Shown here piece after piece: positions 1 to 18,720 of a stretch of 18,720 bases of DNA. The position numbers and the translations under genes are program-made. Origin of the DNA: a virus (taxonomy: Duplodnaviria > Heunggongvirae > Uroviricota > Caudoviricetes); IMG/VR virus record IMGVR_UViG_2634166457_000003, positions 1 to 18,720 of that record. One strand, given 5' to 3'. The first letter of the stretch is position 1. Every line of letters starts with the position of its first letter. The notes under the pieces were generated by a model. The model ran no database searches, was not told where the DNA came from, and was given only the letters and a program-made list of their open reading frames with translations.

Positions 1-87
1 GTGGTTTTTTTGTATCCGTGGGATTGTTCGGCTCGCTATACAACTTTGCGAAGCATAGCGGAATTAAAGCAGTTTATACGTAAGAAA

Positions 88-917: not shown

Positions 918-1516
918 TACGCAAACTCCAGCAGCTGCGCGGCCACATTTTCGACTTGTTCCGGAGAGGAAAATTTACGGAACAGAATCCAGTTCCACAG
1001 CACATTCAGAACAGATTTATAAACCTGCTGAAACTCGGTTTCGTCCATATTCGCAAAAGCGATGGATTTCGCCCGACGCCCATGGCTACCGTCCGGATAA
1101 AAATGTTCGGTGTAAAATCCAGCCTGAATGGTTACCCACTCGCGAAAAGCCTCAAACGACTTTAGCAATGCCGTATCCCGGGTTCTGCGTGTCGCAACTG
1201 TATTCAGATATTGCTCTGCGGCATCACTCAGGGCTGGCGTGTGTTCCCGACCAACTGATTCGCACAGGTAATCAACGAAACCAGACAGCAGTTCTCGTTC
1301 GCGAGGCGTGATCGCCCCACCGACCGGAGTCCAGTAATCGAATCCCAGTTGCAGGAGTTTGAAAAAACGCTTGTGGAATGCGTAGTTACGCACACGCTTA
1401 AAGTCTGCGTGTATCCACTCACCTATTTTGATTTGATGCAGAAAATCGCAACTCTCCGGCGTCGCCGGGAGAAGTAAACCAGAAGAAGTTTGTTTGACCA
1501 GTTGTATATGCGCCAT
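917..1516 (-). CDS. nin-region phage protein of unknown function (possibly DUF1367-like), 199 aa
   Basis: Long ORF with ATG start, coupled to the downstream YbcO-like gene; the family name is not verifiable from sequence alone. Confidence 0.5.
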   Translation of the reverse strand: MAHIQLVKQTSSGLLLPATPESCDFLHQIKIGEWIHADFKRVRNYAFHKRFFKLLQLGFDYWTPVGGAITPRERELLSGFVDYLCESVGREHTPALSDAAEQYLNTVATRRTRDTALLKSFEAFREWVTIQAGFYTEHFYPDGSHGRRAKSIAFANMDETEFQQVYKSVLNVLWNWILFRKFSSPEQVENVAAQLLEFA

Positions 1517-1979
1517 TTCTCAATCTCTCGATGGCGCAGTGCAGCAGATGCCAGTTGTTCAGGCTGACGTATAAAGTATAAATAAACTGGTTCCAGTGTA
1601 AAGCCCCCACCTTAATGGAATAAAAACCAAACAACAGATTGCTGGGATACAAACAACGCTTATTATTAAAAGCGGTTAAACAAATTAAATTTTAATGTTA
1701 TGCAAATTTGTCAGATCACCATAATATCTCATTTGAAAACCGCTGAAATAACAACCCTATCAGGGTTAATCATATTAAGGTGAGTAAATATGGAAAACAA
1801 CAAATCTGCACATTACGTTCCTTTTTTATCCGTAATACTTTTTGTTTTATGCTGTGCGTGGGCATTATTTTTATAAAAATATTTACAGATGAAGTAAACC
1901 CGCCAATCAGGTTAACTGTGGCTGCGTTGAGGATGCATAATACATCAGAGGTTGCGGGGATTTCTCCCCGCTGGTCCTC

Positions 1980-2135
1980 TTACTCCCCAAGTTCGTAAGC
2001 TGTGAAGACAGCGACCTCCGTCTGGCCGGTTCGGATTCGTACCTCGCAGAGGTCTTTCCTCGTTACCAGTGCCGTCACTATGACGGTTAAACAGATGACG
2101 ATAAGGGCGATTAACATCGCCTTTTGCTGCTTCAT
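1980..2135 (-). CDS. Hok/Gef-family type I toxin, 51 aa (HokD/RelF-like)
   Basis: MKQQKAMLIALIVICLTVIVTALVTRKDLCEVRIRTGQTEVAVFTAYELGE: single transmembrane helix plus the conserved C-terminal CE.R.R....EVA..YE motif of the Hok family. AAGGAG sits 9 nt upstream of the ATG. The track ORF 1980..2192 is an in-frame upstream extension of it. Confidence 0.75.
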   Translation of the reverse strand: MKQQKAMLIALIVICLTVIVTALVTRKDLCEVRIRTGQTEVAVFTAYELGE

Positions 2136-2393
2136 AGCCTGCTTCTCCTTGCCTTTCGGCACGTAAGAGGCTAACCTACATTTGCTAGACATAGATTGGG
2201 CCTCAGATTAATGTTAAGCGTCTTGCAGGACGCGTAATGTTAACTGGGGCTTTTCTCTATCTGCCGTTGGTGGCATGCCCGAGGCAGATAGCCTCAAGCA
2301 CCCGCTGCAATTCTACTTAACTCTTCTTTTCCCGCAAACCGTTTTTATCCAGCACAGCAAATAGCCGCATTAAGCCAATGTTGTTCATTGTGT

Positions 2394-2573
2394 TTACCGC
2401 CAGTATTCAATACAAATGACCGCCATGAATACCCCTACAAAAAGCGCACTTATATGTCCAAATATTAATGTCAAGACATCAACTTCCTCCATCTCCTCCG
2501 CTGTTGCGATGATAGGTATACATGATGCAAACAACCAGATTGCAACAAATAAAAACTGCAATGTCTTTTTCAT
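2394..2573 (-). CDS. Small two-helix membrane protein, 59 aa, hypothetical
   Basis: Start trimmed to ATG (MKKTLQFLFVAIWLF...) preceded by GGGGGA; two hydrophobic helices separated by an acidic loop (TAEEMEEVD). Confidence 0.4.
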   Translation of the reverse strand: MKKTLQFLFVAIWLFASCIPIIATAEEMEEVDVLTLIFGHISALFVGVFMAVICIEYWR

Positions 2574-2688
2574 TATTCCCCCGACAATCAATGAGTAATA
2601 ACATTTAAACATAGATTGACATAATCAGACATAAAAATATCTGGCTGCACATTTTGCTTACATCGTGTTATAGGGAAGATTAAAAAAT

Positions 2689-3252
2689 TCACCGCAAAAC
2701 ATCCGCCGCGCTTACCAGTCCATTTCGCTTCAGGTAGTCCATCGCTTTATCCGGTAATTTGCAGTCCGACTTCACTTTCTTCAACTGGCTGACCAATTGC
2801 TTAACCAGCATGGTTAATTCATTAATCTGTTTGCCTGGTACTGGTGGATTGTCGGTTGCACCATGACTGGCAGTACAGTTAGCACTCCCTCCCTTCTCCT
2901 CCTGCAGCGGTTCAGGTAACGCTTCCAGTGATGTTTTTACAAACCACGCTGCCTGAACTATAACGCCATGAATCCAGCGCAAATCAGCATCGCGATCTTT
3001 CTTTTTCATCTTCTCGCCACTTAAAGCCTGGCTTATGTGACTGCGTACCAGGTCTTCATGTAACTCCTTCGCATCCTCAATGGTGAAACCACCAGGTAAA
3101 CGCCCCAGAGTTACCGGAGAGTTGCCAGCCTTGCGCATGGCAATTTCCACGATTTCAACCATATCTTCTGGTGGAATTTTACAATGCTGGCCAATATGCC
3201 TCTGCTGTCTGGCATACTCGAGGATGTGCTCCAGCTTGGTTCGATTAATCAT
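2689..3252 (-). CDS. Hypothetical phage protein, 187 aa
   Basis: ORF with ATG start overlapping the upstream stop (ATGA), consistent with translational coupling; no motif recognised. Confidence 0.6.
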   Translation of the reverse strand: MINRTKLEHILEYARQQRHIGQHCKIPPEDMVEIVEIAMRKAGNSPVTLGRLPGGFTIEDAKELHEDLVRSHISQALSGEKMKKKDRDADLRWIHGVIVQAAWFVKTSLEALPEPLQEEKGGSANCTASHGATDNPPVPGKQINELTMLVKQLVSQLKKVKSDCKLPDKAMDYLKRNGLVSAADVLR

Positions 3253-3728
3253 GATTTATCTCCCTTAAGCATGGCGGCGCGGCAGGCGTTAAGCGCGTTT
3301 TGCACGCGTTTAGCGTTCTGTACTTCGTATTTAGGTGCGGCTGCCAATGCCCATAGCCAACCAATTTCATAGCTATCAGCTTTTGATAGAGCACATTCCA
3401 TTTCCAGTGTTATTTTCTTAGGTACGAGTTGCCAATCATCTGGCACTACTGGCGCTGGTGCCCCAGACAGCAAAGCATCAGCCATACACATAGCTTCCAG
3501 TCCCGTAGCCTCCGCGATACCGTCACGAATAAGCTCAAGCCCCTCTTTTGTTAATAGTTTCATTCCTTTATACATGACGGGCACTAGCGGTTCTGTTTCC
3601 AGCGATGCCAGTGCAATTTTGAATAACTCACCCTCTACTCGTGCCACGCCTGAATTGGGATGGCATTTCGCAATCGCTATTTTTAATTTAGCTTCTTCAA
3701 TTAATTGTTCTTTTGTTAATTCAGCCAT
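3249..3728 (-). CDS. Hypothetical phage protein, 159 aa
   Basis: ORF in the operon frame series; Shine-Dalgarno weak; no motif recognised. Confidence 0.55.
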   Translation of the reverse strand: MAELTKEQLIEEAKLKIAIAKCHPNSGVARVEGELFKIALASLETEPLVPVMYKGMKLLTKEGLELIRDGIAEATGLEAMCMADALLSGAPAPVVPDDWQLVPKKITLEMECALSKADSYEIGWLWALAAAPKYEVQNAKRVQNALNACRAAMLKGDKS

Positions 3729-3821
3729 TTTTCACTACCGCCCTTTCAGGCGCTCCTGATGTTCTGAGGGTGCAGAAATCCCTCCGGTTAAGGATTAAAT
3801 TTTTAACAGTGCTAAATTTAA

Positions 3822-4178
3822 TTATTCAGTTCTGGATTTTGTCGCTCTGCGTATCCCCGCTTTTGCGTTACGCTCAATCTGAATTAACTTTTCTATATTT
3901 TTCCGCCTTTCCTGTTCCTCCTGGCGCAATAGCCTTACATCCTCTGCCAGTCTGGTTTCTCTTTTCGCCACAGAGAGCATCCAGCCAAACGGCTCCACAA
4001 CTGCACTGCAGATTTTACAGCGGACCTGACGCTCTTTTTCATCAACCCGGACAGAAGCGTGATGGCAATATGGTCTTTCCGATGGCTCATAAAGAAAATT
4101 AACCTGATTACGTGGGTCATCTTCTTTTACCGGAAATAAAACAATATTACTTAACTCATCTTCTGGTTTTATTTCCAC
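3822..4178 (-). CDS. Hypothetical Cys/His-rich (zinc-ribbon-like) protein, about 118 aa
   Basis: GTG start at 4178 preceded by AAGGAG with 6-nt spacing; alternative ATG start at 4211 would overlap the upstream gene. Motif PYCHH...CKIC. Confidence 0.5.
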   Translation of the reverse strand: MEIKPEDELSNIVLFPVKEDDPRNQVNFLYEPSERPYCHHASVRVDEKERQVRCKICSAVVEPFGWMLSVAKRETRLAEDVRLLRQEEQERRKNIEKLIQIERNAKAGIRRATKSRTE

Positions 4179-4179
4179 G

Positions 4180-4491
4180 TCACTCTCCTTTGATGCGAAT
4201 GCCAGCAACACGTAGTGCGCGCTCTAAATCAGCCAGATAAATCCAGCTGCCATTTTCCTTAGGTATCATGACATGGCGCTCATCAGCATTTATCGGGTGT
4301 CCATATCGAAGTTCATAGCCAGCCGGTAGCTGGACTTCCCTTGCCTCCAGTTCTGCAATGCGCTTGTCTTTGGCTTCCAGTTCATCAAGAACCTTTTTTA
4401 TGGCTGGTGAATGTGTCGCATAACTCGCAGCCGGACCGGCAAGCATTATCCTGAGCTGCGTTTTCGCTTTTTCCGTGTTCATTTGGTTCAT
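4180..4491 (-). CDS. Hypothetical phage protein, 103 aa
   Basis: ATG-initiated ORF in the operon; coiled-coil-like middle region (ELEAKDKRIAELEARE). Confidence 0.55.
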   Translation of the reverse strand: MNQMNTEKAKTQLRIMLAGPAASYATHSPAIKKVLDELEAKDKRIAELEAREVQLPAGYELRYGHPINADERHVMIPKENGSWIYLADLERALRVAGIRIKGE

Positions 4492-4506
4492 TACCTTATT
4501 TAGTGG

Positions 4507-4914
4507 CTATATTCCCCAATAGAACGTTAGTATACGCTGCATAACTTCGCTTTCCCGGCACTCGCTACAGATTATGTTCTGACGCCTGTCATAACGACGT
4601 ATTTCTCCGTCTGGTAATGACCAGATAAGGTCCGGATCAACCACAGATGTTTTTTTCTTCAGCTTTGCCCTTGAGAGTTTTTTGCGGGCATTTTGCCAGT
4701 CCTTACGAGCCTGTTCTGACGGGAATAACCCGTAGCCAGAGCTGTATACATCACCACTGACAACCAGCTCTCTTGCAAGAACGCTCATCAGATATCTTGT
4801 CGCACCTGTTTTAGCTTCCAGTTGCCGTAACGTCTCACGACCGCTCTGGCGCACGAGTTCCACCACCTGCCTTTTAATTTTTTCCCGCTCTTCTTGTGTA
4901 AATACTTTTGCCAT
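4507..4914 (-). CDS. Hypothetical phage protein, 135 aa
   Basis: Start trimmed to ATG (MAKVFTQ...) 8 nt downstream of GGAGG; basic C-terminal segment. Confidence 0.55.
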   Translation of the reverse strand: MAKVFTQEEREKIKRQVVELVRQSGRETLRQLEAKTGATRYLMSVLARELVVSGDVYSSGYGLFPSEQARKDWQNARKKLSRAKLKKKTSVVDPDLIWSLPDGEIRRYDRRQNIICSECRESEVMQRILTFYWGI

Positions 4915-4929
4915 AAGCGCCTCCGGCAA

Positions 4930-5691
4930 TCACTTTTCCGACACAATACGACTGGAGGAATCGACAATCTGTCGAACAATATCCCGGTGCTTGTTCAGCT
5001 CCCGTAGCGCGGCGCAGACTCGCTCCCACTTCTGGACATGACTTTTCGCCCGGCGCAGTTCGCGGTTTGCCATATGCAGCGATGGTAAAATCAGGTCATT
5101 GGCTCGCGTTTCAGTGAACGATGGTAGTGACTGCACAATGTCCCCCATAGTATCTGTTTTAATTTCTTCCTGTGTTGCCGCTTCCTGTGCTGGTAACGCA
5201 ACACCGGCTGGCTGAGGAAAGGCTTTACCATCAGTTTCCGCTACCGATGCAGCTTTCGGCTCTGCTGGTAAATTATCGCCCGGCATGCAGTAACGAAATT
5301 TACCGTTCTGATTAACGCGAATCAGACGACCTTTACTGATTGCCATTGCCAGCGTTGAAGCCACTTTGCGTGATGTGATGCCGAAAAACGTAGCCAGTTC
5401 ATCCGCCGTTTGTGGGCCACGTTGTTCAATCGTCGCAGTTAAATCGCACTCCGAAATTTTTGCGACTGTTGCCGTGGTGGTTTCTTCCGGCAGTTCTGCC
5501 TGCTCTGGCTGTTCCTGCTGAACGTTGTTATCAGCCACACGCCAGGTGTATACGCTTTTATCAACGAAACCAGCCTTTTTCAGTTCCCACAGCTCGTTCA
5601 GTACCTCTTCACGACTGATATCAAGTCGCGCAGCCAGTTCTACCGACGTGGCTTTTCCCATTGCTTTCAGTGCGTCAAAAACAGTCTCCAT
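4930..5691 (-). CDS. YdaW-like putative DNA-binding protein, 253 aa
   Basis: Start trimmed to ATG (METVFDALK...) preceded by GGGAGG; two winged-helix-like segments. Lies immediately downstream of ydaV, where K-12 Rac carries the ydaW remnant. Confidence 0.55.
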
Positions 5692-5713
5692 TAAAATTTC
5701 CTCCCGGTAAAAA

Positions 5714-6460
5714 TCACTTCGCAATTCCTGGCTGGACGACATTCGGACGCCAGCTCTCCCAGTTAAAATTCACCCAGCGTCCGCCGTTCATGGTCATGCG
5801 ATCCATAATCCGCTCGCCGAGCAATGTTTTCATCGCCTCATAGTTCAGGTTTGTCAGCATCCCCACGCTGCGCATCGACGCTGTCCGGCGATCAACAATC
5901 TGGTGCAGCACCACCTGCTCGTTTTTTGTCTCGCGCTGAATGCCAATTTCATCAAGAACCAGCAGATCCACTTGGCACAGTTCCCGCAAAAATTTTTCGC
6001 CTGATTGCCCGTCGTCATAGCTGGCGTGTAGAGCACTCATGACATCAGCCACGGTAACCACAATCACTGTCTGGCCATCTTTCAGCAGGCGATTCCCGAT
6101 AGCCGCCGCCAGATGGTTTTTTCCGGTACCAGGTTTTCCGCTGAACGCAAAATTTGTACACCCGGTCATCAGTTCATCAGCGATAGATTTCGCCTGGTTC
6201 AACGCGTATCGCTGACCGTCGTTCTGCACCTGGTAATTCGCAAACGAGCATTTGCGGTGCAATGGCTGGATGCCAGAGCGATTCAGAATTTTTTCCACCC
6301 GCAACTGACGATTCTGACGGTTGATCTCCTCACAACGTTTCTGGCCTTCGGAAAGTTGCCACTCGCGCCACTCCGCTACCGTTTTGAATGGGGCGGTTAC
6401 ATGTGGCGGGGCCAGTCTGCGGATACGTTCAAGAATGCCGCCTGCCGCAATATTTTTCAT
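5714..6460 (-). CDS. ydaV: DnaC/IstB-like AAA+ replication helicase-loader (YdaV), 248 aa
   Basis: Walker A motif [16 protein letters not shown]; length and sequence match the recalled K-12 YdaV; follows the O-like gene. Confidence 0.85.
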
Positions 6461-6466
6461 GGTCAG

Positions 6467-7324
6467 TTACCCCCTGAAGCCTGGCGGGATCGCACTATCC
6501 GGTAACGAGACGGTGTTAACCTGTCGGAGTAACGTCTCAGGTCGAACACCTTTTGGCGCGAACAAGCCCTGGTATTCATTGGCGATGCTGTGTCGAATCA
6601 CCTGCTCAGGTGAAAAACCCTGCTGGCGGAATTTTTCCAGCTCCCGTATCGCCCCGTTAGCGCCCTGCTCCGTTCGAATCGGTTTACGCAATGCCTGGCG
6701 AAATTCAACCCACTCACGCCAAAGCGAGACAGAAATCCAGTTCGGCAAAGCAATATCCAGAGGGTCAAACTTTTTGACACCTCGATTACCCCGGGGGGGA
6801 TTTAGGGGGGGATCTGTTTTTAGATCTTTATCTGTATCTTTATTAGTTGCCTTTGTGTTGACATCATGTTCAAACACCACTTCAACATCTGTTTGAACAC
6901 CTGTTAAATTTCTCTCTTGTTTTGTTTGAACATCTGCTTCCTTTCTGCTTCTTCTGGCCTGAACCGATGCTTTTCCTGCGGCTGATTTTTTGGTTAATTT
7001 TTCCCTGACTGATGCCAGATCTTCCTCAATCCGAAGATGCACCCATTCCTCGCCGTTATCGCAAAAAAACTCCCGCAAGGATGGTTCAACATCAGCCCAT
7101 CGCTCGTTAGTCAGGCGGGCAATTTTTGCCAGCCTGTTTTTAGGTATTGGCTTTCCTGTTTGCCAGTAATTGAACATCAGCAACAAATACGCACCATGCT
7201 CCTCTGCTGACAAATGCATGGTGTCAGCCAGGTAATCAGCTATGTACAGTTGCATGTATGGTAATGCGGCCATAATTGCCCCGTATGATGCTGCCCGGTG
7301 GCTTAGAATAAGCACAAACAGCAT
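6467..7324 (-). CDS. ydaU: Phage replication initiation protein (YdaU, O-like), 285 aa
   Basis: 285 aa ORF with ATG start; position between the cII-like and DnaC-like genes; matches recalled K-12 YdaU length. Confidence 0.8.
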   Translation of the reverse strand: MLFVLILSHRAASYGAIMAALPYMQLYIADYLADTMHLSAEEHGAYLLLMFNYWQTGKPIPKNRLAKIARLTNERWADVEPSLREFFCDNGEEWVHLRIEEDLASVREKLTKKSAAGKASVQARRSRKEADVQTKQERNLTGVQTDVEVVFEHDVNTKATNKDTDKDLKTDPPLNPPRGNRGVKKFDPLDIALPNWISVSLWREWVEFRQALRKPIRTEQGANGAIRELEKFRQQGFSPEQVIRHSIANEYQGLFAPKGVRPETLLRQVNTVSLPDSAIPPGFRG

Positions 7325-7336
7325 GGAAACTTTTGC

Positions 7337-7759
7337 TTAATGAACAATGACAGAATCGTCGGAAGACCCGCCGCCGCTGAAATGCGCTTTCCGGTAAACG
7401 GCTTGGACTGCATCATCATGCGCATCAATTGCCGTACTTAACGCTTCCTGCGCCGCCAGTAATGCACGGCGTTCCAAGGTATCGAAGATGTAGAGTCGGT
7501 GACGCAGATCGCGCGGAAGGATTGCCAGAATTGCTGGGATCAGCTTCTGAATTTTTTCTCTTTGCGTTTTTGTTTCACCTTTCAACCAACGGTGATAGAT
7601 ATTCTGCTGATTGTTCCAGTCCTTGCCTGGAACCAGGGGCAATTCGCAGTCCCCCTGGCGCAGATATTCTTCAGTAATTGCATTGGCTACCCATGCCTGC
7701 CCTTTTTCGGCTGCCAGGGCAAACAACACTGATTCGATGTGCTCATGCTTGATTTTCAT
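7337..7759 (-). CDS. ydaT: YdaT (cII-like early regulator/toxin), 140 aa
   Basis: 140 aa, immediately downstream of the cro-like ydaS; matches recalled K-12 Rac YdaT. Confidence 0.8.
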   Translation of the reverse strand: MKIKHEHIESVLFALAAEKGQAWVANAITEEYLRQGDCELPLVPGKDWNNQQNIYHRWLKGETKTQREKIQKLIPAILAILPRDLRHRLYIFDTLERRALLAAQEALSTAIDAHDDAVQAVYRKAHFSGGGSSDDSVIVH

Positions 7760-7781
7760 GAATCATTTGCCTCTTGATGTT

Positions 7782-8078
7782 TCAGGTATGATCAAATGAG
7801 GATTTGTTACTGTCTTTTAGTTGCTTCACTGACATATTCTGCGAACAACATGCCGAACGTCGTAAATATGACCAGTCAATATCAGGACGAAGTTCTTCGC
7901 ACAGAACCTCACCTCTTGTTGCACGTTCAATTGCTGGACATCTCTCGGCAGGCAATTGACGTACCCCTTTGATCCATTGATTTACGCTTGGAGGTGATAC
8001 ACCTAAAAGCCTAGCCATTGCTGATTGCCCACCGACAACAGCACAAGCTTGCTTGAATGAATAGTTCTCTTTTTTCAT
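7782..8078 (-). CDS. ydaS: YdaS (Cro-like HTH regulator/toxin), 98 aa
   Basis: Helix-turn-helix segment (QACAVVGGQSAMARLLGVSPPSVNQWIKG); divergent from racR; GGAG 9 nt upstream of the ATG. Confidence 0.8.
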   Translation of the reverse strand: MKKENYSFKQACAVVGGQSAMARLLGVSPPSVNQWIKGVRQLPAERCPAIERATRGEVLCEELRPDIDWSYLRRSACCSQNMSVKQLKDSNKSSFDHT

Positions 8079-8104
8079 CGAATGAACTCCAAAAACACAC
8101 AGGA

Positions 8105-8134
8105 ATATTAGGCGACGCCTAACGCAAATGTCAA
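8105..8134 (-). promoter_or_regulatory. pR-like sigma70 promoter for ydaS (TTGACA-18-TAATAT on minus strand)
   Basis: On the minus strand, -35 TTGACA (8129-8134) and -10 TAATAT (8105-8110), about 25 nt upstream of the ydaS start; overlapped by TTAGGC-type operator half-sites. Confidence 0.55.
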
Positions 8135-8190
8135 TAGGCTATGCCTAATGCGATAAAGGTAGGGATTGCCTAATGTAATGCGCATAGGAG
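8107..8190. promoter_or_regulatory. Operator cluster (OR-like) between ydaS and racR
   Basis: Repeated dyads built from TTAGGC / GCCTAA half-sites: TTAGGCGACGCCTAA (8108-8122), ATAGGCTATGCCTAAT (8134-8149), and a weaker GCCTAAT-containing site near 8166-8186. Confidence 0.6.
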
Positions 8191-8201
8191 AATATTAAGC
8201 A

Positions 8202-8678
8202 ATGCTTAGTGGTAAAGACTTAGGCCGAGCGATAGAGCAGGCCATTAACAAAAAAATCGCATCGGGATCCGTCAAATCAAAGGCGGAGGTCGCACGCCAC
8301 TTCAAAGTCCAACCACCATCAATTTATGACTGGATTAAGAAAGGCTCTATAAGTAAAGATAAACTTCCAGAATTATGGCGTTTCTTTTCTGATGTTGTTG
8401 GTCCAGAGCATTGGGGGCTTAACGAATACCCCATACCAACCCCCACCAATTCAGATACAAAAAGTGAACTTTTAGATATAAACAACCTTTATCAAGCAGC
8501 CTCTGATGAAATAAGAGCGATTGTAGCTTTCCTGTTATCTGGAAATGCTACAGAACCAGATTGGGTTGACCACGATGTTCGCGCCTACATAGCAGCGATG
8601 GAAATGAAAGTGGGTAAGTATCTGAAAGCTCTAGAATCTGAACGGAAAAGCCAGAACATCACAAAAACTGGAACTTAA
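8202..8678 (+). CDS. racR: Prophage repressor RacR (CI-like), 158 aa
   Basis: 158 aa; divergent from the cro-like ydaS; flanked on both sides by operator dyads; AGGAG upstream of the ATG; matches recalled K-12 RacR. Confidence 0.85.
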   Translation: MLSGKDLGRAIEQAINKKIASGSVKSKAEVARHFKVQPPSIYDWIKKGSISKDKLPELWRFFSDVVGPEHWGLNEYPIPTPTNSDTKSELLDINNLYQAASDEIRAIVAFLLSGNATEPDWVDHDVRAYIAAMEMKVGKYLKALESERKSQNITKTGT

Positions 8679-8749
8679 ACTTATATGGTCTGACGGAAAA
8701 CTCCTGGATTCCGTTATTTAACCCCCCCATCACTTTCTGCTGTCGCCAT

Positions 8750-8817
8750 CACCTATTAGGTTACGCTCAAAACATTAGGCATAGCCTATTGACAATCAAT
8801 TAGGCATTACCTATAGT
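8750..8817. promoter_or_regulatory. Operator cluster (OL-like) downstream of racR
   Basis: ATTAGGCATAGCCTAT (8774-8789) is the exact reverse complement of the OR-side site at 8134-8149; additional TTAGGCATTACCTAT (8799-8813) and CCTATTAGG (8752-8760). Confidence 0.6.
8789..8817 (+). promoter_or_regulatory. pL-like sigma70 promoter for the ydaG-to-intR operon (TTGACA-17-TATAGT)
   Basis: Consensus -35 TTGACA (8789-8794), 17-nt spacer, -10 TATAGT (8812-8817); operator half-sites overlap the -35 and the spacer. Confidence 0.6.
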
Positions 8818-8986
8818 TCCAGCATACCACCCACCCCGCCCCACAGAACGCCGGGCAATACTTCGAGTTACCAGGCAGTGGTAAGGGGTTAAGTAGCCAG
8901 CCCGAGGCGTATGAACATGACGGCGGGATTCAAATTTTGCAGTGCAGCAGTTAGTTCCGCCACCCGGCGTTAAGGGGAGAGATAAG

Positions 8987-9121
8987 ATGGTGCATTACGA
9001 AGTAGTTCAGTATTTGATGGATTGTTGCGATATCACTTACAGCCAGGCTGTACAGGCTCTACGCAGCAACGACTGGGACCTCTGGCAGGCAGAAGCCTCT
9101 ATCCGCAACAACAAAATGTGA
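8987..9121 (+). CDS. ydaG: YdaG, 44 aa small protein
   Basis: Not in the six-frame track (under 60 aa). ATG at 8987 follows AAGGGGAGAG; translation MVHYEVVQYLMDCCDITYSQAVQALRSNDWDLWQAEASIRNNKM; matches recalled K-12 YdaG length. Confidence 0.7.
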   Translation: MVHYEVVQYLMDCCDITYSQAVQALRSNDWDLWQAEASIRNNKM

Positions 9122-9131
9122 GGTGCGAAAA

Positions 9132-9287
9132 ATGCAAAAAATCGACCTCGGCAATAACGAATCCCTGGTGTGCGGCGTATTCCCCAACCAGGACGGTACG
9201 TTCACCGCGATGACGTATACCAAAAGCAAAACATTTAAAACCGAAACTGGTGCGCGCCGATGGTTGGAGAAGCACACAGTAAGCTAA
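9132..9287 (+). CDS. ydaF: YdaF, 51 aa small protein
   Basis: Not in the track. ATG at 9132 follows AGGTG; translation MQKIDLGNNESLVCGVFPNQDGTFTAMTYTKSKTFKTETGARRWLEKHTVS; matches recalled K-12 YdaF length. Confidence 0.7.
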   Translation: MQKIDLGNNESLVCGVFPNQDGTFTAMTYTKSKTFKTETGARRWLEKHTVS

Positions 9288-9772
9288 CGATTAAAACGCC
9301 TACTCCTGCTGTTCCAGAATAACTTCATAAAGTGGGAGTATTTTTCGGTGACTAGATAATAAGAACAGTTTGCGCTATCACTCTGATGTTGAATGATGCC
9401 CTTCCGTTCTAATTTTTTCATAACCGGGTTACGGCAAGGAGAAGTGATAATAAGATTTCCTGTTTTAAGGAAATCTTTAAATACAGCGATTTCTTTCTCA
9501 GATAAACGAAGCAATACTCGTTGCTCTGGCAGCAATGAATAATGCTTTTGAATATGTGCTCGCAATCTTGAGAAGGAAATGGCGACCACGAAAGAAAAGG
9601 CAAAAACGATAATCTGAAATAGCCAGGATATTTCAGTATAAGAATTGAATGCGACAGCGAACTCTTTCGGTATCAACCAGAGAGTGAGACCAAAAATGAT
9701 AATCGTGTACATAAGTCTTTCGAGTGGCTCGTTAGCAAAAAGTTTCAACAATGGAGTAAATACATCCAACAT
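9284..9772 (-). CDS. sieB: Superinfection exclusion protein SieB, 162 aa
   Basis: Start trimmed to the internal ATG (MLDVFTPLLKLF...) to give the 162-aa length recalled for K-12 SieB; hydrophobic N-terminal helices. Coordinates follow the track frame. Confidence 0.75.
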   Translation of the reverse strand: MLDVFTPLLKLFANEPLERLMYTIIIFGLTLWLIPKEFAVAFNSYTEISWLFQIIVFAFSFVVAISFSRLRAHIQKHYSLLPEQRVLLRLSEKEIAVFKDFLKTGNLIITSPCRNPVMKKLERKGIIQHQSDSANCSYYLVTEKYSHFMKLFWNSRSRRFNR

Positions 9773-9990
9773 ATCAATAACTCTCGACTGTAAGGGTATT
9801 GAAATGTTAACACAAGCTCTCGCTGTAGGGGTATAGCAGAGACCACCGAAGCCCGGAGGTGGTGAAATAAAACCGGGCACAACACGAAGGCGCATTTCCG
9901 ATATCCATAAAGAGTCGGTCTTGTCTGTTAAATTTAAATGGTGGGAGTGCGCCTCCGGTTGTGGATAACAACACTGCTGTGTGTAGTCTT

Positions 9991-10037
9991 GGCGGCATCA
10001 GTTTTTTCTTGAAGTTCGACTGATGTCCGCCCTTTTT
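9991..10037 (+). terminator. Candidate intrinsic terminator upstream of kilR
   Basis: Imperfect inverted repeat GGCGGCATCAGT ... ACTGATGTCCGCC followed by CTTTTT. Confidence 0.35.
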
Positions 10038-10212
10038 AAAGTGAATTTTGTGATGCGGTGAATGCGGCTAAGCGCACGCGGCACAGTTAAAAGTCATGTT
10101 AGTCCTTATTGGTTTGGGTGGGAAAGCCGACTGTAATTGTTAACTGGTTGCAGTCACCTGGAGGCACCAGGCACCGCATCAACAAAGTTCATTTGTAAAA
10201 ATGGAGATAATT

Positions 10213-10434
10213 ATGATTGCACATCACTTCGGAACTGATGAAATACCACGTCAGTGTGTGACTCCTGGTGACTATGTTCTTCATGAAGGCCGGACATATA
10301 TTGCATCGGCAAACAATATTAAAAAGCGAAAACTTTATATTCGTAACCTGACCACAAAAACATGCATTACTGACTGCATGATTAAAGTCTTCCTCGGTCG
10401 TGATGGTTTACCTGTAAAGGCGGAGTCATGGTGA
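10213..10434 (+). CDS. kilR: Cell-division inhibitor KilR, 73 aa
   Basis: Start trimmed to the second ATG ([14 protein letters not shown]...); matches the recalled K-12 KilR sequence and length. Confidence 0.85.
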
Positions 10435-10604
10435 TGACTAAGAAAATAAAATGTGCTTATCACCTTTGCAATAAAGGAATTGAAGAAAGCAAAAGCATTA
10501 AAAGACCACTTCATTTCATGCGTGGAGTTATCCCAACGACGGAAATGAAAAAATATTGTAGTGAAATTTGTGCCGAAAAAGACCAGATGGCACACGAACT
10601 TTAA
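10434..10604 (+). CDS. ydaE: YdaE, 56 aa Cys-rich small protein
   Basis: Not in the track. [15 protein letters not shown]...CSEICAEKDQMAHEL; start overlaps the kilR stop; alternative start at 10428. Confidence 0.7.
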   Translation: MTKKIKCAYHLCNKGIEESKSIKRPLHFMRGVIPTTEMKKYCSEICAEKDQMAHEL

Positions 10605-10677
10605 TTAACTAACTATGCGAAACTGAATTTATGCCAGCAATGGCAGGGATTCGCTCAACCTTAATTAAGGAGAAAAA

Positions 10678-10953
10678 ATGATTACCAATTATGAAGTCAC
10701 TGTTGTAACTACCGATGACATTGTTCACGAGATTAATCTGGAAGGAAAGCGTATTGGCTACGTGATTAAAACAGAAAATAAAGAAACCCCATTCACTGTG
10801 GTTGATATTGACGGCCCATCAGGCAACGTAAAAACACTTGATGAAGGTGTCACAAAAATGAGTCTGGTTCACATCGGAAAGAATCTGCCCGCAGAAAAAA
10901 AAGCCGGATTTCTGGCAACTCTGATTGCAATGAAATTAAAAGGTGAAATCTGA
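10678..10953 (+). CDS. racC: RacC, 91 aa
   Basis: 91 aa; GGAG upstream of the ATG; matches recalled K-12 RacC; immediately upstream of recE. Confidence 0.8.
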   Translation: MITNYEVTVVTTDDIVHEINLEGKRIGYVIKTENKETPFTVVDIDGPSGNVKTLDEGVTKMSLVHIGKNLPAEKKAGFLATLIAMKLKGEI

Positions 10954-11051
10954 AAAAAGAAAGCCTGCACAACGTGCAGGCCTGAGTGAAGAACCTGGGA
11001 CATTTATTCATCACTCGCAGTAATTTTAATCTGAGTTGAGGTTAAAAAACA

Positions 11052-14000
11052 ATGAGCACAAAACCACTCTTCCTTTTACGGAAAGCGAAAAAATCATCCG
11101 GTGAGCCTGACGTCGTCCTGTGGGCAAGCGACGATTTTGAATCAACCTGTGCCACTCTGGACTACCTGATCGTTAAGTCAGGTAAAAAACTGAGCAACTA
11201 TTTTAAAGCTGTTGCCACGAGTTTTCCTGTCGTTAATGACCTGCCCCCTGAAGGTGAGATCGATTTTACCTGGAGTGAACGCTATCAACTCAGCAAAGAC
11301 TCCATGACCTGGGAACTAAAACCGGGAGCAGCGCCAGACGACGTTCACCACCAGGATAATGCTCAGGAAACCAAAGAACTGGCGGGAGGCCAGGAAGAAA
11401 ACGCGCAGGCAGACGCCCACGGGGATTGCCAGGATTGCGAAGTCTCTGTAGCCACTTTGCGGTTCACACAGCGTCTTCTTCACATTTTTACGTATGCGGC
11501 CGGGGATCGGAAATACCTGCATCATGCTACCCGTGAACAACGCGAACACATTACTGCTCTTGAGATGGACCAGGAAAACAGCTATGTCCAGAATCTGCTG
11601 TTGGCCATACGCGGCATGGCAGAACCGACAACTCTGGATAATGCCGCCCTGCTCCGCCTGACTGATGCAATTAAGGCAGTTTTCTCTATCACGAAAAAAC
11701 ATCAGCCCTATGAATTTAAGAATTTCATTTCAGCCTGGCTGGATACCGAACACATTGATCGTGGTCTTCTGACAAAAGAATGGAGGAAAGGGAATCGTGT
11801 TTCACGCATCACTCGCACGGCTTCCGGTGCTAATGCTGGCGGCGGGAACCTCACCGATCGCGGCGAAGATTTCGTCCACGATCTGACGTCACTGGCACGC
11901 GATGTAGCCACTGGCGTACTGGCCCGTTCAATGGACGTGGACATCTATAACCTTCATCCGGCACACGCTAAACGCATTGAGGAAATTATCGCTGAAAATA
12001 AACCGCCCTTTTCTGTTTTCCGCGACAAATTCATCACCATGCCTGGCGGGCTGGATTATTCCCGCGCCATCGTGGTTGCGTCCGTAAAAGAAGCACCAAT
12101 TGGGATCGAGGTCATCCCCGCGCACGTCACTGAATATCTGAACAAAGTACTGACTGAAACCGATCATGCAAACCCTGATCCGGAAATCGTGGATATTGCC
12201 TGCGGTCGCTCCTCTGCCCCGATGCCGCAGCGAGTAACAGAAGAAGGAAAACAGGATGATGAAGAAAAACCGCAACCATCTTGCGCAATGGCAAATGAAC
12301 AGGCAACGGCTGAAACAATGGAACCGGACGCAACTGAACATCATCAGGACACGCAGCCGCTGGATGCTCAGTCACAGGTAAATTCTGCTGATGCGAAATA
12401 TCAGGAACTGCGGGCAGAACTCCATGAAGCCCGGAAAAACATTCCATCAAAAAATCCTGTCGATGCCGACAAATTGCTGGCTGCCTCGCGTGGTGAGTTC
12501 GTTGAAGGGATTAGCGACCCGAACGATCCGAAATGGGTAAAGGGGATCCAGACTCGCGACTCTGTGTACCAGAACCAGCCAGAAACGAAACAAAACACGC
12601 CAGAAACTGTAAAAACCAGCCCGGATGTGAAACAACCTGAGCCAGTAGTGCAACAGAAACCGGAAATAGTCTGCAATGCCTGCGGTCAGACTGGCGGGGA
12701 TAACTGCCCTGACTGTGGTGCGGTGATGGGCGACGCAACATACCAGGAAACATTCGATGAAGAGAATCAGGTTGAAGCTAAGGAAAATGATCCGGAGGAA
12801 ATGGAAGGCGCTGAACATCCGCACAAGGAGAACGCTGGCAACCATCCGCATCACGATTGCAGTGATGAAACTGGTGAAGCGTCAGCTCATGTAGCAACTG
12901 AAATCATGTGGCCGTCATATTTCGAGCCTGGCCGCTATGAAAACCTCCCGAACGAGGTTTATCACTCCGCCAACGGAATAAGCAGCACAATGCTGAAGGA
13001 TGCCCGCATCAGTCTGATGTATTACCACGGGCGGCACATTGCCGGAACTATTCCGAACGAGGAAAGTGATGCATTGCTGCGTGGGCGGATCATTCACAGC
13101 TATGTTCTGGAAACGGATAAATTCGCTGATGAATATGCCATTCCGGTACCGGTTCCTGAATATGTGGTTACTACTTCTAACGAGCTGATCACCATCATTA
13201 AAAAACACAATGCCAGTCTGCCATCACTGATGACACCAGAGCAGATGAAAGAGTGGATCGAAAGCTACAACAGCACTCTTATACAGCCACTGTCGGTAAG
13301 CGCTGGGGCCGAAGAAACAGGCATCCTTTACGGTTCGCTTCCGGAGGAATTTCGGCGTATTCCTGAGGGGGAAAAACACACAGCATCAGCAATGAAAGCC
13401 TGTATTAAAGAATACAACGCAAGCCTCCCTCCTCTGCTGAAAACCAGTGGAACACGGGAGCAGCTTCTGGAGCAAATTGAAACTGTAGATCCAGAACTGG
13501 CAAAAAAAGAACGTGCTAAATCGTTGCCTTACAACATCAGTGGCACAAAAGAGCAATTAACCGAAATCGCCCGGAAAATTCGCCCGGAACTGGTAACACT
13601 GGAGGACTGGCAAAAACGCCAGCAAGAAGAAAATGCAGGAAAAACGTTTATCAGTCCAGATATGTATGAACAGGCAAAAAATATTCACGTGGCACTGCAA
13701 AACAATACTGACGCGGCAAGACTACTCAACCACCCGGATCGCAAATCTGAAATCAGCTATTTCGGGTTTGATGAAGAAACCGGGCTGGAAATCAGGGTCC
13801 GCCCTGATATCGAAATCCGACTGCCATACGAAAGCATCTGCGCCGACGTGAAATCAGTAAGCCTCGGTTATGTGCGGCAAGAACGACTAAAAGATCGCTT
13901 ACACCGTGAAATTATTGAACGTGATTATCACCTGAGCGCCGCAATGTACTGCGATGTGGCAAACTTGGACAAATTTTTCTGGATCTTCGTCAACAAAGAT

Positions 14001-14063
14001 GCTGGCTATCACTGGGTGGCTGTCGTGGAAGCCTCGCAGGAACTCCTGGAACTTGGTCGATAG
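11052..14063 (+). CDS. recE: RecE-like exodeoxyribonuclease VIII, 1003 aa as read; ends at an in-frame amber codon with the frame open to 14195
   Basis: N-terminal roughly 600 aa match the recalled K-12 RecE ([26 protein letters not shown]...); the C-terminal domain carries PD-(D/E)xK-like motifs ([13 protein letters not shown]). TAG at 14061-14063 is followed by 43 sense codons in the same frame up to TGA 14193-14195. Confidence 0.8.
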
Positions 14064-14206
14064 GAATATCGCCGGACGCTACGACAGATAAACGAAGCGC
14101 TGGAGACAAACAACTGGCCAGCACCGATTACCGAAAGTTATACCGACGAATTAAACGACTTTGATCTTCGTCGTCTTGAAGCACTGAGCATCTGAGGAAG
14201 GACACA

Positions 14207-15259
14207 ATGAACGAATTAACTCAACAAGAAAATATTAACTCTAATGTTGCAGTTTTCAGCCCTCAGTCTCTGGCTGCAATTCAGACGTTTTCTCAGGTAA
14301 TGGCTTCCGGCATGGCTACTGTACCGGAACACCTCCGAGGAAATCCATCAGACTGCATGGCCATCACCATGCAGGCGATGCAGTGGCAAATGAACCCTTA
14401 CGCAGTAGCTCAGAAAACTTTCGTTGTGAATGGTGTGCTCGGATATGAAGCGCAACTGGTTAATGCCGTAATCAGTACTCGTGGGCCGCTAACCGGGCGT
14501 ATTGAATATGACTGGTTCGGGCCGTGGGAAAAAATTATCGGGAAATTTGAAATCAGGAAGAACGACAAAGGGAAAGAATATCGTGTACCTGGCTGGAAGC
14601 TGGCCGATGAAAACGGGATCGGAGTTCGCGTCCAGGCAACACTACGCGGAGAGAGCAAACCACGCGTACTGGAGTTACTTCTGGCGCAGGCCAGAACACG
14701 TAACTCAACGTTATGGGCCGATGATCCTCGTCAGCAGCTTGCCTATCTGGCACTGAAACGCTGGGCGCGCCTTTATTGCCCTGAAGTGATTCTTGGAGTG
14801 TACACCCGGGACGAACTGGACGAACCACAGGAAAAAATCATTAATCCGGTTCAGGAACATAAAAACACATCCGCCTGCCGTGCGGAACGTGAAACAACAA
14901 TTATTGAGCAGGATGCAGGGGAAAACTGGATCAGTGCTTTCCGTGAACGTATTGAGCAGGCACAAAGCACCGGAGAAACAACAGCACTTCGGCAGGAAGT
15001 GGAAGAGCATAAAAATACACTTGGCGCTCTCTATACGGAACTTAAAGGAAAAGTGGTTCAGCGTCATCACCGTCTCAATGCTATTGCCCGTATTGAGAAG
15101 ATGATAAATGACCTGCCTTCATCAGGTGATCCGGAAGCAGAACAAAAATTTACTGCTCTGGAAAATGCGTTGAATGCTGCACGACCACATCTGGGAGAAT
15201 TATATGAGGCGTATAAAACGACACTGACAGATATGAAACCAGAATATATCGGCTCCTGA
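14207..15259 (+). CDS. Single-strand annealing protein of the Red-beta/RecT superfamily, 350 aa (not K-12 RecT)
   Basis: Sits in the recT position after recE; GAGGAAGG upstream of the ATG. Segments MNPYAVAQKTFVVNGVLGYEAQLVNAVI and WADDPRQQLAYLALKRWARLY resemble the Red-beta core, while the overall sequence differs from the recalled K-12 RecT. Confidence 0.7.
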   Translation: MNELTQQENINSNVAVFSPQSLAAIQTFSQVMASGMATVPEHLRGNPSDCMAITMQAMQWQMNPYAVAQKTFVVNGVLGYEAQLVNAVISTRGPLTGRIEYDWFGPWEKIIGKFEIRKNDKGKEYRVPGWKLADENGIGVRVQATLRGESKPRVLELLLAQARTRNSTLWADDPRQQLAYLALKRWARLYCPEVILGVYTRDELDEPQEKIINPVQEHKNTSACRAERETTIIEQDAGENWISAFRERIEQAQSTGETTALRQEVEEHKNTLGALYTELKGKVVQRHHRLNAIARIEKMINDLPSSGDPEAEQKFTALENALNAARPHLGELYEAYKTTLTDMKPEYIGS

Positions 15260-15322
15260 TATTTACTATGGCGGCGTAGCCTCACCGCCATAACAAAACT
15301 TTATTTTATGAGAGAAAATACA

Positions 15323-15517
15323 ATGCGGTATGAAAAAGTCAAACCATGTCCATTTTGTGGTTGTTCATCAGTAACGGTGAAAGCCATTTCAGGATATTAC
15401 CGAGCGAAGTGTAACGGATGCGAATCCCGAACCGGCTATGGTGGAAGTGAAAAAGAAGCACTCGAACGATGGAATAAACGAACCTCTGGAAATAATAATG
15501 GAGGTGTTCATATATAA
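15323..15517 (+). CDS. ralR: RalR (Lar), 64 aa; type I toxin with DNase activity and restriction-alleviation role
   Basis: Start trimmed to MRYEKVKPCPFCG...; Cys-rich motif CPFCGC...CNGC; matches the recalled K-12 RalR sequence and length. Confidence 0.85.
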   Translation: MRYEKVKPCPFCGCSSVTVKAISGYYRAKCNGCESRTGYGGSEKEALERWNKRTSGNNNGGVHI

Positions 15518-15698
15518 AATTACCGCCACTATTGAAAAGGAAGGAGGCACTCCTACTAACTGGACAAGATATTCAAAATCTAAACTAACGAAATCAGAAT
15601 GCGAAAAAATGCTCTCAGGTAAAAAAGAAGCAGGCGTTTCCAGAGAGCAGAAAGTAAAACTGATAAATTTTAATTGCGAGAAACTTCAGTCCTCATGA
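15498..15698 (+). CDS. ydaC: YdaC-like small protein, about 66 aa
   Basis: ORF overlapping the ralR 3' end in another frame; start uncertain (ATG at 15498 or 15438, neither with a clear Shine-Dalgarno); position matches ydaC of K-12 Rac. Confidence 0.5.
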   Translation: MEVFIYKITATIEKEGGTPTNWTRYSKSKLTKSECEKMLSGKKEAGVSREQKVKLINFNCEKLQSS

Positions 15699-15797
15699 AT
15701 TGCATTGTATTCAAATTAAAACTTCATAGCTGATTATTAATAATCAACATCGGGCGTCAATTTCAGTCTAACATTGGCGCCTGCCAGAGGTGATGCG

Positions 15798-16013
15798 ATG
15801 GCACAAGTAATCTTTAATGAAGAGTGGATGGTTGAATACGGCCTGATGCTTCGCACTGGTCTGGGTGCCAGACAAATTGAAGCATACCGCCAGAACTGTT
15901 GGGTGGAAGGCTTCCACTTCAAACGAGTATCTCCTTTAGGGAAGCCAGACAGTAAGCGAGGGATTATCTGGTACAACTATCCGAAGATAAATCAGTTTAT
16001 CAAAGACTCATGA
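15798..16013 (+). CDS. xisR: Excisionase XisR (YdaQ), 71 aa
   Basis: Start trimmed to ATG at 15798 ([12 protein letters not shown]...), since the track ORF begins on TTG; ends 1 nt before the integrase start; matches recalled K-12 YdaQ. Confidence 0.85.
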
Positions 16014-16014
16014 T

Positions 16015-17250
16015 ATGTCTAAATTACCAACAGGTGTCGAGATTCGAGGTAAATACATTCGCATCTGGTTCATGTTTCGAGGAAAACGATGTCGGGAAAC
16101 ATTGAAAGGCTGGGAGATTACTAACAGTAACATTAAAAAGGCCGGGAATTTAAGAGCGTTGATAGTTCATGAAATCAGTTCCGGTGAATTTGAGTATTTA
16201 AGACGTTTTCCCCAGTCCAGCACTGGGGCAAAAATGGTGACAACGAGGGTCATAAAAACATTCGGGGAGCTTTGTGATATCTGGACAAAAATTAAAGAGA
16301 CAGAGTTAACAACAAACACAATGAAGAAAACGAAATCACAATTAAAAACACTCAGGATAATAATTTGTGAGAGTACCCCGATATCGCATATTCGTTATAG
16401 CGATATCTTAAACTACCGGAATGAACTGCTGCATGGAGAAACGCTTTACCTGGATAATCCAAGATCCAACAAAAAAGGAAGAACCGTGCGCACAGTTGAT
16501 AACTATATCGCCCTGCTCTGTTCGCTGTTACGTTTTGCGTATCAGTCGGGATTTATATCAACCAAACCATTTGAAGGAGTAAAAAAATTACAGCGAAACA
16601 GAATAAAGCCTGATCCGTTATCTAAAACAGAATTCAATGCATTAATGGAAAGTGAAAAAGGACAGAGCCAGAACTTGTGGAAATTTGCCGTTTACTCAGG
16701 ACTTCGTCACGGGGAACTGGCAGCTCTGGCGTGGGAGGATGTGGATCTCGAAAAGGGAATAGTGAATGTCAGAAGGAACCTGACGATACTTGATATGTTC
16801 GGTCCCCCAAAAACAAATGCCGGGATCCGGACAGTAACACTACTGCAGCCTGCTCTTGAAGCACTGAAGGAGCAATACAAACTGACCGGACATCATCGCA
16901 AAAGCGAAATCACCTTTTATCATCGGGAGTACGGCAGAACCGAAAAGCAAAAACTGCATTTTGTTTTCATGCCCAGGGTGTGTAACGGAAAACAAAAACC
17001 TTATTACTCGGTAAGCAGTTTGGGGGCAAGGTGGAATGCAGCAGTAAAACGTGCTGGTATTCGCCGCCGTAATCCGTACCATACGCGGCATACTTTTGCC
17101 TGCTGGCTGTTGACGGCAGGAGCGAACCCGGCATTTATAGCCAGCCAAATGGGGCATGAAACTGCGCAGATGGTGTATGAAATTTACGGTATGTGGATTG
17201 ATGACATGAACGACGAACAGATAGCCATGTTGAATGCGCGGTTATCGTAG
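16015..17250 (+). CDS. intR: Tyrosine-recombinase integrase IntR, 411 aa
   Basis: 411 aa; C-terminal catalytic region with an HTRHTFA motif (HxxR); adjacent to xis and to the host ttcA. Confidence 0.9.
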   Translation: MSKLPTGVEIRGKYIRIWFMFRGKRCRETLKGWEITNSNIKKAGNLRALIVHEISSGEFEYLRRFPQSSTGAKMVTTRVIKTFGELCDIWTKIKETELTTNTMKKTKSQLKTLRIIICESTPISHIRYSDILNYRNELLHGETLYLDNPRSNKKGRTVRTVDNYIALLCSLLRFAYQSGFISTKPFEGVKKLQRNRIKPDPLSKTEFNALMESEKGQSQNLWKFAVYSGLRHGELAALAWEDVDLEKGIVNVRRNLTILDMFGPPKTNAGIRTVTLLQPALEALKEQYKLTGHHRKSEITFYHREYGRTEKQKLHFVFMPRVCNGKQKPYYSVSSLGARWNAAVKRAGIRRRNPYHTRHTFACWLLTAGANPAFIASQMGHETAQMVYEIYGMWIDDMNDEQIAMLNARLS

Positions 17251-17301
17251 TTGCAAAGTTTGCCCCCAATTTGCCCCATTTAGTACCAGAGAACTTAAAT
17301 A

Positions 17302-18237
17302 ATGCAAGAAAATCAACAAATTACAAAGAAAGAACAATACAACCTGAACAAATTACAAAAACGTCTGCGTCGTAACGTGGGCGAAGCCATTGCTGACTTC
17401 AATATGATTGAAGAAGGCGATCGCATCATGGTTTGCCTCTCCGGGGGTAAAGACAGCTATACCATGCTGGAAATTCTGCGCAATTTGCAGCAAAGCGCGC
17501 CAATCAATTTTTCGCTGGTGGCTGTTAACCTCGATCAAAAGCAACCGGGCTTCCCGGAACACGTTCTGCCCGAGTATCTTGAAAAGCTGGGCGTTGAGTA
17601 CAAGATTGTTGAAGAGAACACTTACGGTATCGTGAAAGAGAAGATTCCAGAGGGCAAAACCACTTGCTCACTGTGTTCTCGGCTACGTCGCGGTATCCTT
17701 TATCGCACCGCAACGGAACTGGGGGCGACGAAGATCGCGCTGGGTCACCATCGTGACGATATCCTGCAAACGCTGTTCTTAAATATGTTCTACGGCGGCA
17801 AGATGAAAGGTATGCCTCCGAAACTGATGAGCGATGATGGCAAACATATCGTTATTCGTCCGCTGGCCTACTGCCGCGAGAAAGATATTCAGCGCTTTGC
17901 CGATGCAAAAGCGTTCCCGATTATTCCGTGCAACCTGTGCGGTTCACAGCCTAACCTGCAACGTCAGGTGATTGCTGACATGTTGCGTGACTGGGATAAA
18001 CGTTATCCGGGGCGTATCGAGACGATGTTCAGCGCGATGCAGAATGTGGTGCCGTCACATCTGTGCGATACCAACCTGTTCGATTTTAAAGGCATTACTC
18101 ACGGTTCTGAAGTGGTTAACGGGGGTGATCTGGCGTTTGATCGCGAAGAGATCCCACTACAACCGGCGGGCTGGCAGCCAGAAGAAGATGAAAATCAGTT
18201 GGATGAGTTACGGCTGAATGTGGTTGAAGTGAAATAA
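17302..18237 (+). CDS. ttcA: tRNA 2-thiocytidine(32) synthetase TtcA, 311 aa
   Basis: PP-loop ATPase motif SGGKDS; Cys motifs [10 protein letters not shown] and CNLCGSQ; matches the recalled E. coli TtcA sequence. Confidence 0.95.
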
Positions 18238-18300: not shown

Positions 18301-18302
18301 CC

Positions 18303-18720
18303 TGAACTGCACCCCAAATGTTGGACATAATCTGACATCTGAAGGTGCAGTTTATGAAACATTCATTTGAAGTAAAACTTGCCGCTGTAAATCATTACCT
18401 GGCTGGTCATGCAGGCATCATTTCTACGGCAAAACTCTTTCAACTTTCTCACACCAGCCTCTCACACTGGATTAATCTTTTTCTTCTTCACGGTCCTCGG
18501 GCACTGGATTGCAGACACAAGCGTAGCTATTCTCCTGAAGATAAACTTTGCGTGGTTCTTTATGCTCTCGGGCATTCTGAGTCTCCTACCCCGGGTAGCT
18601 GCCCGGTTTAACATTCCCAGCCACAACACGGTTAAAAACTGGATAAAAGGCTACCGCAAATCTGGTAATGAGGCCTTTATCAGGCGCAGGAAGGAGAAAA
18701 GCATGACCGTTCTGATGATA
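18303..18720 (+). mobile_element. IS3-family (IS150-group-like) element, left part; continues beyond the window
   Basis: Begins with TG (TGAACTGCACCCCAAATGTTGGACA), an IS3-family-style terminus, followed by an orfA-like reading frame. The left boundary is approximate. Confidence 0.45.
18345..18611 (+). pseudogene. IS3-family transposase OrfA-like gene, apparently frameshifted
   Basis: N-terminus (FEVKLAAVNHYLAG...) aligns with recalled IS150 OrfA; the similarity continues in the +1 frame after about 18590 (VAARFNIPSHNTVKNWIKGYRKSGNEAF), with the frame change at a CCCCGGG run. Confidence 0.5.

Follow-up and report, generated by a model that had tools for sequence, protein, structure and literature searches.

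Paired TGCCCC repeats as probable arm-type integrase sites at the ttcA attachment site of a Rac-family prophage

The attL site of phage lambda consists of a core, the H' IHF site and the arm-type sites P'1-P'3. For the closest described system, the Rac prophage of Escherichia coli K-12, it was shown experimentally that excision changes four residues of TtcA (Liu et al. 2015, PMC4632033). The same study reported that TtcA N-termini fall into two groups across strains, described a carbenicillin fitness effect, and identified YdaQ/XisR as the Rac excisionase. The excision-linked change in TtcA was restated in later work and a review (PMC6379469), and GeF-seq detected IHF bound to the K-12 Rac attL, close to the start of ttcA (PMC8407004). 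The record of phage Rac-SA53 (KU052037) annotates 26 bp at ATG+24 to ATG+49 of ttcA; the core is its only annotation of the site, without arm-type or IHF sites.

Here we analyse the ttcA end of a prophage in an 18,720-nt stretch of viral DNA, referred to in its full length as the window, in which the annotated Rac-SA53 segment corresponds to positions 17326-17351. The locus shares with K-12 Rac attL (PMC4632033) the gene order, codons 1-8 of ttcA, the 26-bp core and the predicted four-residue change in TtcA. The spacers are identical at 50 of 51 positions, the window having T and K-12 G at 17297. The junction and its effect on TtcA are correct as given in a preliminary description of this DNA, yet both are already published and annotated: the four-residue change is found in Liu et al. 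2015, and the central claim is therefore correct but known. What is added is a comparative case, built on sequence, for TGCCCC pairs as putative arm-type sites of this integrase family, and this is the sole increment.

Gene layout, junction and att core

The genes xisR, intR and ttcA all lie on the + strand (Table 1), with intR directly upstream of ttcA and co-oriented with it. In E. coli MEI003 and K-12, xisR is annotated at the corresponding place. IntR matches its E. coli and Shigella counterparts at 100% identity; its N-terminus is an Arm-DNA-bind_2 domain (Pfam PF12167, residues 5-69, E 3e-26) and its catalytic part a Phage_integrase domain (Pfam, residues 205-391). Positions 1-15700 cover the early and the recombination genes of a lambdoid, Rac-like prophage, with ydaS/T/U/V-like genes, racR, sieB, kilR and ralR, recE at 11052-14063 and a RecT-family gene (350 aa) at 14207-15259. 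Just past the ttcA stop codon, in REP/BIME-like palindromes, lies an IS3-family, IS1397-like element (18303-18720) with its orfA at 18345-18611 (HTH_28 domain). Its place is occupied by dbpA in E. coli genomes including K-12, and the matches of complete genomes to the whole window all stop at 18302. The best complete E. coli genome is only ~95% identical to the whole window, at 84% coverage.

Table 1. Positions of genes, repeats and attachment-site elements at the ttcA end of the window
Feature	Position	Strand	Basis or remark
xisR, excisionase gene, 71 aa	15798..16013	+	Pfam DUF1233 putative excisionase, E 6e-21
intR, tyrosine integrase gene, 411 aa	16015..17250	+	ORF and Pfam domains
intR-ttcA spacer, 51 nt	17251-17301		between the two ORFs
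First proposed arm-type site, P' arm, TTTGCCCC	17259..17266	+	motif pair; hexamer TGCCCC at 17261-17266
Second proposed arm-type site, P' arm, TTTGCCCC	17270..17277	+	11 nt from first
Putative Shine-Dalgarno-like GAGA, phage-supplied	17289..17292	+	9 nt before ATG; read from the sequence
ttcA, whole CDS, 311 aa	17302-18237	+	NCBIfam TtcA equivalog, 514 bits
Phage-borne substitute ttcA start, ATG and codons 2-8 (MQENQQIT)	17302..17325	+	17/24 vs empty site and vs K-12 ttcC
IHF consensus AATCAACAAATTA (WATCAANNNNTTR)	17311..17323	+	only exact match in the whole window
26-bp att core AAGAAAGAACAATACAACCTGAACAA	17326..17351	none	26/26 vs empty attB and both K-12 Rac ends
ttcA remainder, host-derived	17352..18237	+	48/49 vs Rac-free allele just past core; 14/49 vs phage arm at K-12 attR

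Three references were used for the junction: Rac-free E. coli 7386Nal, in which uspF is followed directly by ttcA, the K-12 intR-ttcA end and the K-12 uspF-ttcC end. Against the empty attB of 7386Nal, the window is identical at 18/51 positions in the spacer (35%), 17/24 in codons 1-8 (71%), 26/26 in the core from 17326 on (100%) and 48/49 in the next 49 nt. Against the K-12 uspF-ttcC end (attR), the spacer, codons 1-8 and core give the same values (18/51, 17/24 and 26/26), and the next 49 nt match at 14/49. It follows from this pattern that everything before 17326 is phage DNA and everything after 17351 host DNA, the 26 bp between being common to both; phage-specific bases end at 17324-17325. 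In MG1655 the annotated 'cryptic prophage Rac' has its boundary at this place (1411899, 50 nt into ttcA), and the 26-bp attP/attB features annotated in Rac-SA53 (KU052037) coincide with the core as well. With high confidence we assign 17251-17351 to a Rac-family lambdoid prophage inserted in the 5' end of ttcA, as its attachment site on the integrase side (attL by K-12 convention); the repeats in this site are most likely arm-type sites of IntR.

The preliminary description had placed the prophage-host junction at the 5' end of ttcA, with the integrase ending 51 nt before the ATG. Both points agree with the present data: the intR stop codon ends at 17250 and ttcA starts at 17302, and identity to the empty site breaks within the first codons, identity with Rac-free ttcA not continuing through the spacer. 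Its candidate att core, the 29-mer ACAAAGAAAGAACAATACAACCTGAACAA, was right in 26 of 29 bases, which are the core, whereas the first three (ACA, on the left) are phage-specific; the 29-mer occurs once, at 17323-17351 and not at 17325-17353, a difference of 2 nt. A second copy of the 29-mer was absent from the window at up to three mismatches, and none appeared in 200 shuffles. The left end of the window still lies within the prophage, so a far-end copy of the core would fall outside it. In K-12 and Rac-SA53, the core recurs at the other prophage end together with the start displaced from ttcA (ttcC). No inverted core-type half-sites or dyad symmetry were detected, there being no inverted repeat in 17240-17380.

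A perfect 13-nt direct repeat, AACAAATTACAAA, brackets the core at 17315-17327 and 17347-17359. Its left copy is phage-type DNA and its right copy host DNA, and at the empty site the left copy matches at 10/13 positions only. This direct repeat may be due to chance in A-rich coding sequence.

Paired repeats on the integrase-proximal arm

Tandem repeats in the int-ttcA spacer had been placed at 17258-17278, with arm-type sites or promoter elements proposed as their role. The range is right, with copies of TTTGCCCC at 17259-17266 and 17270-17277, and the two proposed roles fare differently: comparison with related loci gives good support for arm-type sites and leaves promoter elements unsupported. 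The pattern TGCCCC-N4-5-TGCCCC occurs once in the 18.7 kb window, against 0.01 occurrences expected. Tandem Repeats Finder called nothing in 17000-17500, the repeats being too short. A pair starting 11-15 nt past the integrase stop codon is conserved in 36 of 38 related loci.

The comparison covered loci with downstream DNA and used a slightly looser pattern. The integrases were ~49-100% identical to that of the window and the targets were ttcA or rstB, 933W being examined separately; prophage contigs in IMG/VR are mostly trimmed at the integrase stop codon, and 13 of them gave downstream sequence. A pair was found within 60 nt of the integrase stop codon in 36/38 loci, or 21/23 distinct spacers. 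The exceptions were L157, which has no pair and is followed by unrelated DNA, and L028, which carries a 1-nt variant. When both strands of the fetched loci (~1 Mb) were searched for paired TGCC[C/A]C motifs, all of those found (36/36) lay either just past the stop codon of an IntR-family integrase or on the opposite att arm. Elements of Enterobacter, Erwinia, Hafnia and Citrobacter with integrases ~70% identical likewise have the pair past the integrase stop codon beside ttcA.

The far arm of K-12 Rac contains three copies of TTTGCCCC and one of TTTGCCAC in the same orientation, forming two pairs with 11-nt spacing at offsets of +107/+118/+137/+148 from the core end, and the far arm of Rac-SA53 has three copies at the same offsets. 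PHB10, a free phage whose integrase is 69% identical at the protein level, presents the whole attP in one piece: the integrase stop codon is followed by a TTTGCCCCTA/TTATGCCCCTA pair, a short ORF that imitates the start of ttcA, and three more TTTGCCCCTA, with offsets from the core that agree with those of Rac within 1-2 nt. In 933W, which targets wrbA, one pair lies beside int and three pairs (six copies) on the other arm. A repeated motif distinct from the core is thus found on both attP arms, as the proximal pair in the window and as opposite-arm clusters in relatives only. The pair follows the relatedness of the integrases and not the target gene, of which there are three (ttcA, rstB and wrbA), and the arm-binding domain is kept across the integrase family, with 24 invariant residues within positions 5-68.

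The TTTGCCCC repeats are probably arm-type integrase sites, and the N-terminal arm-binding domain of IntR would bind both copies. The literature searched contained no report describing these repeats or binding of IntR to them. The IHF consensus falls between the repeat pair and the core; by bending the DNA there, IHF at 17311-17323 would bring IntR on the arm sites to the core, in the manner of lambda attL. The paired TGCCCC signature marks att arms across the IntR/933W integrase family, including Shiga-toxin phages, and it could help to delimit prophage ends and guide attP engineering.

Two further observations concern the related elements. Those of Enterobacter and Pantoea with integrases ~49-52% identical (L022-L027) lie directly upstream of the rstB start codon and carry paired TGCCCC, the identity of RstB being confirmed; their position means that this sister lineage again targets the 5' end of a host gene. 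A conserved TTTTTCAAT(N4)TTA(A/C)A block is present on the opposite arm, ~50-65 nt from the core, in the K-12 far end (L004), 933W (L083/L087) and Rac-SA53 (L084). It also occurs on the integrase-proximal arm of 933W and resembles an IHF site preceded by an A/T tract.

Two other roles for the repeats were considered. Excisionase sites of lambda are found only on the other, non-integrase-proximal arm, whereas the window pair sits on the integrase-proximal arm. Recognition of the repeats by XisR rather than by IntR is on this ground improbable; furthermore, the motif accompanies related integrases down to 43.5% identity, and an arm-binding domain is conserved throughout their family. In favor of XisR is that it shifts a fragment with the K-12 right attachment site, which bears the larger motif cluster (Liu et al., PMC4632033).

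There is likewise little probability that the repeats are promoter or regulatory elements for ttcA, for instance a -35-like TTGCCC, instead of integrase sites. The gene does need a new promoter in the lysogen, and TTGCCC matches TTGACA at 4/6 positions, but no sigma-70-like promoter was found in a scan of 17000-17450, which included the spacer and the last 250 nt of intR, and the only properly spaced -10-like hexamers would start transcription inside coding sequence. Moreover, integrases with rstB or wrbA as their target are followed by the same pair, and further copies of the motif lie on the opposite arm, which has no ttcA.

The ttcA start and variation among strains

Insertion severs ttcA from its own start, and the phage carries a look-alike of that start, consisting of a putative ribosome-binding site, ATG and eight codons. 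With it, ttcA remains an intact gene of 311 codons with a product altered at residues 2, 3, 6 and 8. The original start would lie displaced at the other prophage end, as ttcC does in K-12, and be rejoined upon excision. As a way in which a phage preserves an interrupted gene by carrying a replacement start, this is a textbook-style example, already annotated and tested experimentally. The predicted TtcA differs from the Rac-free protein only at these four residues (MQENQQIT vs MSQNQEIS), in agreement with the earlier claim that excision alters the TtcA N-terminus, which is published for K-12. In the strain of the window, excision is predicted to restore the host-type N-terminus with changes at residues 2, 3, 6 and 8, and the predicted attB read after excision is ATGTCGCAAAATCAAGAAATTAG(C/T)AAGAAAG... 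The suggestion that promoter, ribosome-binding site and first codons are all prophage-derived stands for the ribosome-binding site, ATG and codons 2-8; with no promoter identified in the spacer, its promoter part is an assumption.

Most of the diverged spacers beside ttcA have a GAG-type ribosome-binding site, placed 9-13 nt before the ATG, a recurrence which suggests that phages have been selected to keep ttcA translatable. As for transcription, neither a convincing promoter for ttcA nor a terminator between intR and ttcA emerged when 17000-17450 and 15300-17320 were scanned. The RNA fold of 17240-17330 was no better than that of shuffled sequences (z = +0.57), a result that rules out the spacer as a structured RNA or attenuator. 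A spacer devoid of promoter-like site, terminator and stable RNA structure is the basis for the tentative reading, which we consider rather unlikely, that ttcA in lysogens lacks a promoter of its own and is transcribed only by read-through from the prophage xisR-intR unit. If true, it would tie tRNA C32 thiolation in about half of E. coli strains to the stationary-phase (RpoS)-responsive recombination module of the prophage. The intR-spacer-ttcA junction was present in 2908/5404 complete E. coli genomes matching that query (~54%), and the empty ttcA site in 2489/5411 complete genomes matching the corresponding query (~46%).

Strand exchange would take place within the shared 26 bp at 17326-17351. 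Variant attL alleles were used in an attempt to narrow the crossover further, and the hints conflict, so that we claim no position within the core: L014 and L114 keep phage-type ATATAC, pointing to the right of 17337, PHB10 vs L015 points to the left of 17349, and L134 is inconsistent with a single fixed phage allele.

Rare mosaic attL alleles combine phage-type codons 2-3 with host-type codons 6 and 8 (TtcA MQENQEIS). They were found in 5-8 of 2908 lysogens (<0.3%; L009, L010, E. coli H146-H153, L086) and one crossover within the 26-bp core does not account for them. One of these genomes, the K-12-like BHUCD01, has its other prophage end unchanged, so that the event there was non-reciprocal, which suggests an assembly artefact or gene conversion involving both ends, and not an alternative crossover. 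A true crossover nearer the start codon, in the shared AAAATCAA block (~17309-17316) and with the 26-bp identity as flanking homology only, would fit the switch to host type right after AATCAA in these 5-8 E. coli genomes and in Enterobacter L017, but it is very improbable, since residues 6 and 8 are among the four altered by excision in K-12 (Liu et al. 2015, PMC4632033), so that the crossover lies to the right of codon 8, and since attR is unchanged in the K-12-like mosaic and mosaics make up so small a share of lysogens. Exchange within the 26-bp core is the reading we retain.

A few genomes have other elements at the same ttcA site. One is E. coli G6/7 (L003), whose element is decayed, with an integrase pseudogene, Sll1717-family P-loop ATPase genes and IS1; the TtcA N-terminus there is a third variant (MPENQQVT), and the repeat is degenerate, reading TTTGCCTC...ATGCCCC. 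In E. coli ECMA0423, S. flexneri SFBU1023 and an E. albertii contig (L020, L021, L031), an attP configuration is found within chromosomal sequence, with integrase, integrase-proximal arm, core and opposite arm contiguous; these could be tandem prophages or an assembled circular form. The locus SL112, with an integrase beside zntB, appeared att-like by megablast coordinates and was rejected, the alignment representing an unrelated deletion in A-rich sequence.

Comparison with lambda, e14 and 933W

The order of elements in the window is the same as in lambda attL: integrase gene, tandem arm repeats (as proposed here), IHF site and core. Common to both is also a heterobivalent integrase with a separate arm-binding domain. 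The proposed arm motif TGCCCC differs from that of lambda, and there are two putative integrase-proximal sites in the window, compared with three in lambda. Unlike the lambda core, that of the window is 26 bp long, lies inside coding sequence and has no detected dyad symmetry.

Prophage e14 in icd likewise carries a near-copy of the displaced part of its target, leaving the gene intact with a few substitutions (PMC6379469). Whereas e14 replaces the 3' end of icd, here the 5' end of ttcA is replaced, and for this reason the signals for translation, and presumably those for transcription, must also come from the phage. The Shiga-toxin phage 933W, with an integrase 43.5% identical to that of the window, has the same paired TGCCCC motif. 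It differs in its 7-bp core and in its target, wrbA, and its integrase-proximal pair lies in a C-terminal extension of the integrase coding sequence.
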